From NCBI GenBank assembly GCA_009692435.1, contig SHZE01000004.1:1-63431 (forward strand): a DNA stretch of 63,431 nt, given 5' to 3'. Numbering within the stretch: the stretch's first letter is position 1; the number at the start of each line of letters is the position of its first letter. The notes under the pieces are model-generated. The model made no database searches. It worked only from the letters and a program-made list of their open reading frames with translations, and had not been told where the DNA came from. The position numbers and the translations under genes were made by a program. Shown here in pieces: positions 12,209 to 19,788 of this stretch. This DNA comes from Deltaproteobacteria bacterium (GTDB taxonomy: Bacteria > Desulfobacterota > Binatia > Bin18).

Positions 12209-12475
12209 ATGTGAGAATTTGAGTGGGACGAGGAAAATGAAGAAAAGGTTCGTTTCCATGCCGTCGCACCTGAAGAAGTCGAGCAATGTTTTTTCAATCG
12301 TCACTTACGAAAACGCAAACCACGGTCAGTTGATCGCTGGTATCTCTTTGGAAGAACGGACGGAGGACGCGCGTTGTTTGTTGTCTACCAAAGCTTGGGG
12401 GGAAATGACGTCCGACCCATAACTGCCTATGATCTCTCGCCTGCTTTCAGAAGGAAATATGGTAAAAGAATCTAA
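12209..12475 (+). pseudogene. BrnT-family toxin, disrupted at codon 2
   Basis: Not in the ORF track. ATG TGA GAA TTT GAG TGG GAC gives M*EFEWDEENEEKVRFHAVAPEEVEQCFFN...RWYLFGRTDGGRALFVVYQ...VRPITAY...YGKRI*; SD GGAG at 12199. Confidence 0.82.
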
Positions 12476-12803
12476 ACGCACTCTTAAACGAATCCCGGCT
12501 TTTCGTTCAGAAGCTGAAGAGGCTCGATGGTACGGGGTGCACCGTGATGACCTTCATGAGTATATGGATATGGATGATGCCGAACTGGTCGAGCCGAAAG
12601 CCAACGGAGACCGAAGTGGTATGACACAGGCCCTCTCTTTGCGGCTGCCACAGCGGTTACTGACTGGCCTGCGCCGCGTGGCAGAACAGCAGGAGATCTC
12701 ATACCAGATGCTGATCAAGCAATGGCTGACGGAACGCCTGGCTCAAGAGAGTGCTCCTTCAATCACCCGTCGACCTCAGAGCCGACGCTCGCGTGCGGCA
12801 TAG
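12459..12803 (+). CDS. BrnA-like / CopG (RHH) antitoxin
   Basis: IPAFRSEAEEA...SLRLPQRLLTGLRRVA...SYQMLIKQWL; overlaps the brnT end. Confidence 0.82.
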   Translation: MVKESKRTLKRIPAFRSEAEEARWYGVHRDDLHEYMDMDDAELVEPKANGDRSGMTQALSLRLPQRLLTGLRRVAEQQEISYQMLIKQWLTERLAQESAPSITRRPQSRRSRAA

Positions 12804-12934
12804 TCAACTCTGTCTCTAACCTTCAGCTCCTAGCCTCAGTTCAGACTTTGAACCACAGAGTTCGAACGCGACACTAAAACGCTCCATCCTCCTGTTTCGT
12901 TCCCTGCCCCTCATTATTCTTCTCTCTCCATTTG

Positions 12935-12962
12935 CCATTCATCATTCCGCATTCATCATTCG
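12935..12962 (+). repeat. Heptamer array (NCATTCN) x4
   Basis: CCATTCA TCATTCC GCATTCA TCATTCG, right after the stop of the TPR relic. Confidence 0.8.
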
Positions 12963-12966
12963 TCGT

Positions 12967-13260
12967 TTACTTCAACCCCGCCTTGCGCAACGCGGCAATA
13001 TGCCGCTCCAACACCGCCGGATCTTTGATCGGCATTCTCTCTTTGTGAACCTCCAATGAGAACTTAGGATTGAGCCGCAGCACTTCTGCGATCTCCGCCC
13101 GCGCCTCGGCTGCTTGGCCTAACTCACTGTAGACTGCGGCCAGCATGAGATGGGCGCCCAGAATGTTGGGATAGTGGCTGACATAACGCTGCAAAGGAGC
13201 AATCGCCTCTTCGGGCCGTCCTGAGTATTGACCAGATAGCGAGCGCCAGCCGTCACGCAC
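12967..13260 (-). pseudogene. C-terminal TPR relic of an adenylate cyclase-TPR protein
   Basis: EEAIAPL...HLMLAAVYSELG...EARAE.AEVLRLNP.FSLE...ALRKAGLK is a typical end of such proteins; no N-terminal part. Confidence 0.7.
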
Positions 13261-13501
13261 TTTCTCCCAACTCAGCTAGGAACTCCTCCGGGCTTTTGAG
13301 TCGCCCGTCGCTATTGTGAGAATCGCGAAAGCGCATCCACTCCAGATAGTCACGCACGTCTTCTACATTCTTGAACGCCGCCCACTGGCCGTATTTGTCG
13401 TGCAGCAACTTGCTTAATGCGCCAATCAGCCGCGAGAGGTCTTCCGGCGCCAAGGTCTCTGCCTTGGCTAAAACGTCTTGATAGGTTTCCTGTGGCTCCA
13501 C
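13253..13501 (-). CDS. Small hypothetical protein, antitoxin-like
   Basis: 82-aa ORF, helical N-terminus (YQDVLAKAETLAPEDLSRLI) and acidic C-terminus; family not recognised. Confidence 0.55.
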   Translation of the reverse strand: MEPQETYQDVLAKAETLAPEDLSRLIGALSKLLHDKYGQWAAFKNVEDVRDYLEWMRFRDSHNSDGRLKSPEEFLAELGESA

Positions 13502-13589
13502 AATCTTTTCTTTTCTAGAAGGATAGAGGTAGATTATCCAGTCATTCTGCTTAACTCAACCTCGACAACTCGTCATCGAGCTCGATCAC

Positions 13590-13677
13590 TTAATGGCTCG
13601 ACTCTTCCAGGAACGCTTTCGCCTCTTGCAAGTCCTTGGTGTCAAACCCTTCGGTGAACCAGCCGTAGATCTCACTC
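13590..13677 (-). pseudogene. Orphan 3' tail of a STAND cyclase gene
   Basis: SEIYGWFTEGFDTKDLQEAKAFLEE; 13618..13670 matches 20171..20223 at 48/53 nt. Confidence 0.8.
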
Positions 13678-17893: not shown

Positions 17894-17925
17894 AGTGACG
17901 TACGCTGAAGATCGGACGTAGCGAT

Positions 17926-17952
17926 GAGGGGCGAGTGTTCAACTCGCCCCTC
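17926..17952. repeat. 10-bp-stem hairpin (REP-like or terminator)
   Basis: GAGGGGCGAG-TGTTCAA-CTCGCCCCTC. Confidence 0.6.
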
Positions 17953-18000
17953 TGTTTTGGGGGGGGCGTTCGTGTAAAAACATGCTCAAAAGGGGGCGTT

Positions 18001-19221
18001 ATGAGTCAGCCAAAACATGTTCTCGACGGATATAAAGTATTGGACTTCTCACAAATTATCGCTGGTCCGACGTGTACGTTGATGATGGCGGAGATGGGGG
18101 CTGAGGTCATCAAGGTGGAGCTGGCCCCGGCGGGAGATGGCGCACGCATGGGGCCACTCGTCGTCGAGGGCCGGAGTGCCTATTTCGTTCAACATAATCG
18201 CGGCAAGAAAGATTTGTGTCTGAATGCCAAAACCCCCGAGGGCCTCAAGATCCTCAAAGGGCTCGTCGAGAAAGTCGATGTGGTCGTCGAGAATTACGCG
18301 CCGGGTGTGATTGGACGGCTCGGGCTCAGCTATGAAGTGGTGAGTCAGATTAACCCACGGGTGGTGATGTGTTCGATTTCCGCATTTGGACAAACGGGTC
18401 CATTGGCGCACGAACCAGGCTTTGACTGGGTCGGTGCGGCGTATGCTGGGATCACCTCCATGGGGGGCGAACCCGACGGGCCGCCGCTCTTTCCGATGGT
18501 GGCAATGGGTGATGTATCGACGGGCGCGCATGCGATGGGCGCGATTTGCGCGGCGCTGTTGTATCGAGAGCGAACGGGTCGTGGGCAGCATCTGGACCTC
18601 TCACTGCTTGATACCTATGCCCATTACCATGAAGGCAGTTTTCAGATGTACAGTCTGAGTCAGGGAAAGATCAACCCGACGCGCTCTGGCTCTCACTCGT
18701 GGTACGCGGCTCCCTGTGGCGTCTTCAAGGCGCGCGAACGCTACGTGATCATTATCGCCGCGCTTGAACAACACTGGTCGAAGCTGTGTGAGGGGATGGG
18801 GCAACCAGGTTTGGCGCGTGACCCACGCTTTACCGATAATGCCGCGCGGATGCGCAACCTGGACGAGATGGTGGCGATTATCGAGGGCTGGATGCGGGCG
18901 CAAGAGAATGACGATGCGGCGATTGCCATACTGAAGGCGCATCATGTGCCAATCGCACCGATCCTGTCCGTGGCTGAGGCGTCGCGGCATCCGCATCTGC
19001 GCCAGCGTGGGACGGTCCGCACGATTCAGGACCGGATTCTAGGCGAGTTTGATGTTCCGGGATTCGCGCTGCGGTTTTCGGACTTTCCGCAACCGCTTGC
19101 GCTGCAAGCCCCAACGCTGGGAGAGCACAATGAGGAGATATTGACGCAGTGGCTTGGCTATAGCGACACTGAAGTGCGCGAGCTGGAGAGCAAGGGTATT
19201 TTGCGGAGCCGTCCGGTCTGA
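18001..19221 (+). CDS. Family III CoA-transferase (CaiB/BaiF)
   Basis: VLDFSQIIAGP, GAEVIKVE, HNRGKK, catalytic Asp in AMGDVSTG. Confidence 0.9.
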   Translation: MSQPKHVLDGYKVLDFSQIIAGPTCTLMMAEMGAEVIKVELAPAGDGARMGPLVVEGRSAYFVQHNRGKKDLCLNAKTPEGLKILKGLVEKVDVVVENYAPGVIGRLGLSYEVVSQINPRVVMCSISAFGQTGPLAHEPGFDWVGAAYAGITSMGGEPDGPPLFPMVAMGDVSTGAHAMGAICAALLYRERTGRGQHLDLSLLDTYAHYHEGSFQMYSLSQGKINPTRSGSHSWYAAPCGVFKARERYVIIIAALEQHWSKLCEGMGQPGLARDPRFTDNAARMRNLDEMVAIIEGWMRAQENDDAAIAILKAHHVPIAPILSVAEASRHPHLRQRGTVRTIQDRILGEFDVPGFALRFSDFPQPLALQAPTLGEHNEEILTQWLGYSDTEVRELESKGILRSRPV

Positions 19222-19236
19222 GGTCAAGGGATAAGA

Positions 19237-19266
19237 AGACCAGGTTCGCTGCAACCAACCTGGTCT
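19237..19266. terminator. Hairpin between convergent genes
   Basis: AGACCAGGTT-10 nt-AACCTGGTCT. Confidence 0.5.
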
Positions 19267-19364
19267 CTTCCTCCATGCCGACAAAGACACGCAAGCGGTG
19301 GTGTGTGGTGTGTATGAGCGCCGCGGAATAGCGGTTGATCCATCCCGTGACCACATTTGCCGCT

Positions 19365-19788
19365 TCAAATTGTCCAGTCTTGTATGGGAAGATCGAGGAT
19401 ACGCTGGAAATCCCTGCTATTACGAGTGACGAGCACACCACTTACTGAGAGAGTAATAGCCGCGATGCAGAGGTCGTTAGTTCCCAGGCGTAGCTTCTTC
19501 GCTCGCAACTGATCAAAGATCGTCGCGGCTGCATCATTGAATGGTAACCAAGCGATTCGTTGGTAAAACAGCAGTGCCTTATGAAATCTGGTATAGGCTT
19601 GCATTCGTGCCGCTCCGTCCTGTGCTCGGCGACAGGCGGGCAACCACCCACCAATGTCTTCTTCCATTGTGACAATTGTTGTTGCTACCGTGTCCGTCGA
19701 AGACAACGTCCGCAGGTGTTGTAAGACCGACGGATGTGCCTGCTGGACGAATCCAACAATGTCTGTGTCCAAGAACGTACAAACTCAT
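19365..19788 (-). pseudogene. PIN-domain (VapC) toxin with a +1 frameshift after codon 6
   Basis: ATG 19788 overlaps the upstream TGA (ATGA). It reads MSLYVL-G-GAC-ACA-GAC; removing one base gives MSLYVLDTDIVGF...NDLCIAAITL....VLVTRNSRDF. Confidence 0.85.

Follow-up and report, generated by a model that had tools for sequence, protein, structure and literature searches.

The window analysed here is a stretch of 63,431 nucleotides (nt) that makes up the entire contig C19 (SHZE01000004.1) of G000, a Deltaproteobacteria metagenome-assembled genome (MAG) of the Binatia (GCA_009692435.1; 2.14 Mb, 109 contigs, 56% G+C, completeness 83%, contamination 0.13%). Between hisH and hisB, the window carries three type II toxin-antitoxin (TA) cassettes, brnTA, mazEF and vapBC, in each of which the toxin gene has a single lesion near its start and the antitoxin gene is open. 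The loci of the window were aligned with homologous loci from the same-genus genomes G001-G003 and from same-family genomes, and independent support was sought through exact-protein look-ups in Logan and ENA assemblies. Toxin-first erosion of the cassettes is the probable explanation of this pattern.

The locus between hisH and hisB

Two genes form the conserved core of the locus, namely a luciferase-like monooxygenase gene (16817-17893, plus strand) and a family III CoA-transferase gene (18001-19221, plus strand). The pair was about 90% identical in G001-G003. In several further genera of this family, hisH/hisA likewise adjoined the monooxygenase gene, and the core is therefore not foreign. 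An earlier note on this DNA had called the stretch a his-splitting island, a description that fails for the core gene pair and holds for the junctions around it, which are variable. Other small TA-like pairs were present at the hisH/monooxygenase junction and after the CoA-transferase gene in G001 and G002. Judged by these alignments, the locus is a variable TA spot whose content differs between related genomes.

The three cassettes lay around this core: brnTA at 12120-12826 and mazEF at 15789-16654, both on the plus strand, and vapBC at 19304-20117 on the minus strand. Each was 0.7-0.9 kb long, had sharp edges, and occurred as 93-96% identical copies in other contexts. No flanking repeats or attC-like sites were found at the edges of the three cassettes. 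Additionally, there was no recombinase near them.

Lesions in the three toxin genes

The brnTA cassette was a discrete unit that aligned without gaps, at 95-96% nucleotide identity, to three JGI contigs with other flanks. It comprised the toxin gene brnT (12209-12475, plus strand) and the CopG-type antitoxin gene brnA (12459-12803, plus strand), the start of which overlapped the 3' end of brnT. As in known BrnT/BrnA systems (PF04365 and PF12441), the toxin gene came first, the genes overlapped, and both Pfam families scored above cut-off: BrnT_toxin on brnT with 39.8 bits (cut-off 34.5) and CopG_antitoxin on the downstream brnA with E = 3e-13. Unlike these systems, the window gene had a stop in place of the conserved Trp at position 2, a TGA (12212-12214) that closed the open reading frame (ORF). 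The window read ATG-TGA-GAA-TTT-GAG-TGG versus ATG-TGG-GAA-TTT-GAG-TGG in G002:C311 (83% identical), which encoded an open BrnT of 88 amino acids (aa) starting MWEFEWDE (MWEFEWDEENEEK...). The BrnT of G004 read ..AWEFEWDE, with Trp kept at position 2, and the closest intact allele (P0241, 88 aa) was 95% identical. The earlier note had proposed an insertion in all three toxin genes; this was correct for mazF and vapC, each of which had an extra G relative to its relatives, and incorrect for brnT, where the homologues identify the change as a G>A nonsense substitution (TGG>TGA) at codon 2. The TGA was present at 100% identity in Logan contigs of SRR8561391 and SRR8561390. The next in-frame start was found only at TTG 12374 (codon 56), and we infer that brnT is null, apart from rare UGA read-through, because it has no usable start. 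The exact 114-aa product of the intact brnA was called on independent contigs.

The mazEF cassette was 96.2% identical at the nucleotide level to ENA and Logan contigs. Copies elsewhere adjoined a pabB-like gene (e.g., ERZ27280224), and two Logan contigs started at 15793, four bases inside the left edge of the cassette. The antitoxin gene mazE (16042-16272, plus strand) was intact, encoded 76 aa with a weak ribbon-helix-helix signal, and had counterparts of the same length on relatives' contigs. The toxin gene mazF (16256-16631, plus strand) had its ancestral ATG at 16256 and an extra G in the run at 16290-16294 (codon 13), the sole coding indel of the cassette versus its closest copies. This run was G5 in the window versus G4 in G002:C622 (95% identical), and mazF of G002:C194 and G014:C824 was also in frame from the ATG equivalent to window position 16256. 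In the relatives, the start of mazF overlapped the end of mazE and the protein read ...IEIRRGDILW; in the window, the original frame ended after the extra G at TGA 16295-16297. The closest intact MazF alleles (P0002 and P0003, 124 aa) were 99% identical, and the comparison with the intact allele showed seven nt differences and one aa difference. The G5 run was present at 100% identity in Logan contigs of SRR8561391 (3.8 kb) and SRR12053441 (2.4 kb).

An alternative mazF ORF of 117 aa started at TTG 16278 (plus strand) and was the form reported by gene callers. It matched PemK (PF02452) with 67.7 bits (cut-off 23.1) over profile positions 3-107 of 109. The sequence AGGAG was located at 16263-16267, 10 nt upstream of this TTG, and mazE, which overlapped the ancestral mazF ATG, ended 6 nt upstream of it. 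Solved MazF9 structures aligned from residue 8-10 of the 124-aa MazF. Translation of mazF can probably still begin at TTG 16278 and would give a 117-aa protein whose first six residues are new; the allele may well be active, and may be attenuated, not dead. Similarity to the MazF/PemK endoribonuclease MazF9 of M. tuberculosis (PDB 5HJZ/6KYS) was about 30% across the whole fold, and, as in this family, the window mazF was preceded by a small overlapping antitoxin gene. Unlike in this family, the canonical start was out of frame and only the TTG-initiated 117-aa form was available, with MKSVGG replacing MTKEPETIEIRRG.

In the sister species G002, the mazF ortholog had an intact G4 start and was interrupted after about codon 27 (G002:C622 968-1073, locus L012; G002:C37, locus L013). 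The interrupting element was found in four copies in G002 and one copy in G003, and an ORF for a group II intron reverse transcriptase/maturase adjoined it, antisense to mazF. As read from these loci and from L190 1501-2623, G002 holds an independent knock-out of the same mazF cassette.

The vapBC cassette was 93.5% identical at the nucleotide level to Logan contigs and to G003:C273, where the copy abutted the 5' end of a cyclase gene. The PIN toxin gene vapC (19365-19788, minus strand) had its ATG at 19788, in an ATGA overlap with the intact 101-aa antitoxin gene vapB (19785-20090, minus strand). This 101-aa form, the start of which was the one used by gene callers, was called on a same-strain Logan contig and on a relative's contig; an exact look-up of a 105-aa form gave no match. 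The profile signals of vapB were faint, HicB-like and UPF0150, and below cut-off. The extra G in vapC at 19769/19770 (codon 7) was the sole coding indel of the cassette versus its closest copies. The minus strand of the window read ATGAGTTTGTACGTTCTTGGAC, with CTTGGAC, versus CTT-GAC without the extra G in vapC of G003:C273 (93% identical), G011 and G015, the products of which started MS(L/V)YVLDTDIVGF. The closest intact VapC alleles had 140 aa and were 97% (P0121) and 93% identical. The extra G was present at 100% identity in a Logan contig of SRR12053441.

After the lesion, the original vapC frame formed a 69-aa nonsense ORF and the remainder was open from TTG 19772 (135 aa), which had no Shine-Dalgarno sequence. 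Solved VapC structures aligned from residue 3, and the product of TTG 19772 would therefore lose MSLYVL, which forms PIN strand 1. No complete PIN domain was found in one frame from a start codon, with MSLYVL and DTDIVGF... lying in different frames. The remainder scored 23.7 against PIN (PF01850; cut-off 23.6), and the gene calls of the homologue collection included only a 79-aa tail of vapC. On these grounds, vapC is probably null. Like the VapC tRNA(fMet)-specific endonucleases (PF01850; PDB 6NKL, 3ZVK), the window gene had 140-aa homologues, an ATGA overlap with vapB, the LDTD motif, and the C-terminal ...QDWT tail; unlike them, it had a codon-7 frameshift that left the start codon and strand 1 in another frame than the remainder of the domain. 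The idea that a +1 shift places the toxin in the antitoxin frame was rejected: it held only for vapC, as a trivial result of the ATGA overlap, and has no significance.

Support for the lesions and their age

The lesions were found where the earlier note had placed them, at the extreme 5' end of the toxin genes (codons 2, 13 and 7 of brnT, mazF and vapC, respectively). Its statement that the partner antitoxins are intact was also confirmed; brnA, mazE and vapB were open, had the length of their relatives, and contained no internal stops. Its reservation that the extra bases might be assembly errors was not borne out by the independent Logan assemblies, which were 100% identical at these sites. 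Altogether, four toxin lesions, including one in a PIN gene on contig C50 (see below), were recovered with 100% identity in contigs from a different assembler. Each lesion was seen in one or two of three runs (SRR8561390, SRR8561391, and SRR12053441), which represented two accession series. Assembler error is ruled out for the lesions.

Intact alleles from other metagenomes were 95-99% identical at the protein level and 93-96% identical at the DNA level. Each toxin gene had a single lesion and its substitutions versus the intact alleles were mostly synonymous, which indicates that the lesions are recent. Each toxin was thus under purifying selection throughout nearly all of its divergence. The alignments show the lesions to be derived in this lineage, because close relatives were intact. 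The independence of the three lesions is supported: they differed in kind (a nonsense substitution and two separate +G insertions) and fell in three unrelated toxin families. Three marks expected of erosion were thus found in the alignments, namely a toxin ORF disrupted relative to close intact homologues, an intact cognate antitoxin ORF, and a position in a variable spot.

Toxin lesions across the genome

Toxins were surveyed with family searches and a Pfam scan, after which every N-terminus was inspected. Thirteen toxins were recognised in the genome (eight PIN, three PemK, one HicA, and one BrnT), four of which were broken; family searches of the genome for ParE/RelE gave no matches. A profile search of the genome contigs with PF04365 returned zero matches, missing the window brnT despite its 39.8 bits in hmmscan, and the whole-genome family tallies are therefore lower bounds. 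A codon-usage coding score intended for the small-gene census was dropped, as brnT, vapB, and vapC fell below the cut-off and other TA genes barely above it. The other two toxin genes of the window, a second mazF at 39387-39752 and hicA at about 42615-42779, both described as intact in the earlier note, were open with normal starts. A 3' remnant of a mazF paralogue was found at G000:C43 8070-8217 (minus strand); it comprised about 55 codons, was 82% identical to the window mazF, and was without the 5' part.

The fourth broken toxin was a PIN gene at G000:C50, about 1200-1650 (MRRVYLDVCCLNRPFD...), with a 1-nt deletion at codon 17. One A was lost (GATGATCAA to GATG-TCAA) relative to G003:C205 (87% identical), and the deletion was also present in Logan assemblies of SRR8561390 and SRR12053441. 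The gene had no start from which the first catalytic Asp would be retained. The eight PIN toxins of G000 (2.14 Mb) compare with 15-38 in the same-genus genomes (3.7-6.3 Mb); either the lineage is reduced or TA-rich variable regions were lost from an assembly that keeps only contigs of ≥5 kb.

The background rate was taken from conserved genes, using 1.59 Mb of G001 with ORFs compared in both directions by tblastn. The raw frameshift screen was full of shadow ORFs, 5' over-extensions, and spurious stops and was curated by coding score and by eye; before curation, G001 had eight candidates versus ten in G000. About 404 conserved genes were judgeable after curation, and five were broken in G000 versus G001: ureD (C63, about 5885, -1), a PLP-dependent enzyme (C25, about 2420, +5), an ammonium transporter (C23, about 8647, -1), an AAA ATPase (C6, two stops), and a CoA-transferase (C34, one stop). 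Most lesions in these five genes were within the 5' half. The earlier note's statement that housekeeping genes had no lesions holds within the window and fails for the rest of the genome, given these five genes. Within the window, a metallophosphoesterase gene (47252-48260, minus strand) was split by a mid-gene frameshift, with the Metallophos profile matching the first ORF over positions 1-80 alone and the second ORF carrying the GHTHGGQ motif.

Disruptive lesions were found in 4 of 13 toxins and 5 of 404 conserved genes (Fisher p = 7e-5), an excess beyond chance and in agreement with the earlier note's view that toxins are enriched for lesions. The same-genus PIN toxins had 3 lesions among 78 (Fisher p = 0.007 versus 4 of 13). 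Two of these were clear, a PIN gene at G002:C143 (L127) with a -1 change in the ATGA overlap that shifted the frame at codon 2 and extended a Phd-type antitoxin, and a PIN gene at G002:C540 (L133) in which the ATG had become an Ile codon and a TAG occurred further on; one was possible (G002:C360). Toxins between hisH and hisB were broken in three of three cases versus one of ten elsewhere in the genome (Fisher p = 0.014). None of the four toxin lesions lay beyond 11.3% of the gene length (P about 1.6e-4 if positions were uniform, with the threshold chosen post hoc). A toxin shifted in mid-gene would appear as two profile matches below threshold, and detection thus favours early lesions; the 5' clustering, with four cases and open to this detection bias, is suggestive.

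Toxin-first erosion and alternative explanations

We consider it probable that the locus, a variable spot, records the toxin-first erosion of mobile TA cassettes at a stage when each toxin has one lesion. Three self-contained type II TA cassettes have landed around the conserved pair between hisH and hisB, and each toxin gene has taken one recent, independent mutation near its start, with the antitoxins untouched. Chromosomal TA modules are known to decay in two steps, of which this would be the first. Toxin loss is safe for the cell, and antitoxin loss is impossible while the toxin works; toxin-null alleles therefore survive and then drift or are selected to fixation, which may have been either neutral or selected.

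Toxin-first decay has already been described (PMC13617665; PMC7354431), and there is no new mechanism here. Among the pseudogenised TA copies of Photorhabdus, the toxin only was affected in 185, both genes in 186, and the antitoxin only in 8 (Belot et al., Mol Biol Evol 2026, PMC13617665). The TA systems of Photorhabdus cluster in small high-turnover spots (PMC13617665). An account of ccdO157 decay is cited in the same paper (Mine et al. 2009, as cited in PMC13617665), and orphan antitoxins as TA remnants have been reviewed (PMC7354431). As in Photorhabdus, the TA cassettes of the window were clustered in a small variable spot beside core genes, the toxin was pseudogenised and the antitoxin whole, close intact copies existed elsewhere, and the corresponding junctions of relatives held different TA pairs or lacked them. 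Unlike in Photorhabdus, the host is an uncultured Binatia lineage, three toxin families are involved in one 8-kb stretch, each at the single-lesion stage, and each lesion is a point event within codons 1-13, whereas the majority in Photorhabdus are large truncations (PMC13617665).

Several observations weigh against toxin-first erosion in this simple form. Loss of function is deduced from the reading frames, and the mazF ORF from TTG 16278 would retain the PemK fold in full and is preceded by a good Shine-Dalgarno sequence. Support for the lesions is at the level of assembled contigs, at which intact alleles in a minority, or errors specific to the platform, could still be hidden. A YgiT/MqsA-type zinc-ribbon antitoxin-like gene at G000:C3 (about 58790-59000, plus strand) had an A-run frameshift at codon 14 and adjoined an apparently intact DUF4258 gene, which is the reverse of the toxin-first pattern; lesions are therefore not strictly limited to toxins. 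Lesions in three of three toxins in 8 kb, in the first 11% of the gene, are tighter than simple neutral decay predicts, and comparable lesions occurred in only about 3 of 78 same-genus PIN toxins.

Active selection to disarm is, in our view, the strongest of the alternatives and still unlikely. It would hold that alleles with a null or attenuated toxin were recently favoured for a time in this lineage, perhaps after toxin activation had proved costly or after a factor restraining the toxins had been lost. That 5' lesions in particular were favoured, since they abolish or strongly cut toxin synthesis and keep antitoxin expression and operon autoregulation, is an equally tentative part of this explanation. 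The four young single-hit lesions in one strain speak for it, together with a toxin lesion rate above that of the same-genus genomes (4/13 vs. 3/78, p = 0.007), the restriction of all four lesions to the initial 11.3% of the gene length (P about 1.6e-4, post hoc), the very early toxin lesions of relatives (G002:C143 at codon 2; G002:C540 with the start lost), and the independent knock-out of the mazF cassette in G002. However, the numbers are tiny, ascertainment accounts for part of the 5' bias, since toxins frameshifted in mid-gene would be missed, and ureD, the PLP enzyme, and the YgiT-like gene also had single, mostly 5'-ward lesions, which argues for a general recent pseudogene burst and not a toxin-specific one. 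Convergent selection to disarm had been one of two explanations in the earlier note; the lesions proved to be independent, derived, and enriched in toxins, in line with it. Selection need not have been their driver, because neutral toxin-first erosion predicts the same picture (PMC13617665).

An extended form of the selective explanation appears slightly more doubtful still. Here, early lesions (in about the first 15 codons) would be the preferred route by which incoming TA cassettes are tamed, acting as "soft knock-outs" that reflect a recent sweep against active toxins. The toxin would, on this rather speculative proposal, be silenced or attenuated through the mazF TTG restart or through Trp-restoring UGA read-through in brnT. 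Equally doubtful is its further supposition that antitoxin, promoter, and autoregulation are kept intact as part of the same process.

It is improbable that all of the toxins are still made in altered or low-level form as a means of dosage tuning, with mazF starting at TTG 16278, vapC starting at TTG 19772, and brnT relying on read-through of its UGA by tRNA-Trp. For mazF, this fits the AGGAG 10 nt upstream of the TTG, the span of the 117-aa ORF over PemK positions 3-107 of 109, and the solved MazF structures, which begin 2-4 residues from the new start. Additionally, the three frames downstream of the lesions were open and their divergence was mostly synonymous, which very recent lesions would explain equally well. 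Against it, TTG 19772 had no Shine-Dalgarno sequence and its vapC product would be without PIN strand 1, brnT had no alternative start, and the C50 PIN gene had no start that keeps the first catalytic Asp. Read-through of UGA usually takes place at a rate of about 1% or below, which counts against it as the source of BrnT. The earlier note had named TTG 16278 and TTG 19772 as alternative starts; the two are unequal, the former, with its AGGAG and whole PemK fold, being the more credible.

Programmed recoding or phase variation, through +1 slippage at AGG-GGG-UGA in mazF and CUU-G in vapC or through G4/G5 slippage of the DNA, is very improbable. The mazF GGG codon is preceded by AGG and directly followed by UGA, and this context loosely resembles the AGGGGG and shifty-stop site of prfB. 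Like prfB, mazF had a G-rich AGGGGG and then UGA; unlike prfB, the site occurred in no homologue, had other spacing, and arose as a single-base insertion in this lineage only. The homologues were single ORFs of canonical length, comprising 778 MazF (about 121-124 aa), 213 VapC (139-141 aa), and 25 BrnT (88 aa), and neither the two-frame arrangement nor the shift site was conserved, the nearest mazF alleles (99% identical) being without the extra base. The mazF UGA is simply GGT-GAT plus one G. For phase variation G5 would be a short tract, and it was identical, at the assembly level, in the MAG and two Logan assemblies. The brnT lesion is a substitution and not an indel, and the reversible or recoded switch suggested earlier would need three different mechanisms. 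TGA as a sense codon was rejected as well; the mazE, vapB, and CoA-transferase genes all end in TGA.

A sequencing or assembly artefact has a negligible probability, for although the MAG is fragmented (109 contigs, 83% complete) and one lesion lies within a homopolymer, a different assembler and runs of two accession series gave the same bases, one lesion is a substitution, and lesions in only about 1% of the conserved genes do not suggest data prone to indels.

As a probable case of toxin-first erosion, the locus offers a natural snapshot of the earliest stage of TA decay, in which three families stand side by side with one lesion each and intact sister alleles are recorded. Pairs of native and intact alleles are at hand for kill-rescue tests. 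The clustering of the disabling lesions at the 5' end is a small hint. In annotation, brnT and vapC are best given as pseudogenes and the 117-aa mazF as a start-shifted allele.

Genes between the brnTA and mazEF cassettes

The stretch between these cassettes (12967-13892, minus strand) contained two small genes and a gene remnant. The first gene (12967-13260, minus strand) encoded a 97-aa protein matching Pfam TPR families, and the second (13253-13501, minus strand) encoded a protein of 82 aa with no assigned function and overlapped the TPR gene by 8 nt. The two may be another small two-gene module. The remnant (about 13590-13700, minus strand) was the C-terminal part of a cyclase/TPR gene and included repeat D1 (13603-13673), which was 83% identical to the 3' end of a 1009-aa gene at 20156-20226. 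A segment of about 280 nt (12936-13221) that codes for the 97-aa TPR protein recurred with 75-91% identity at dozens of loci across the family.

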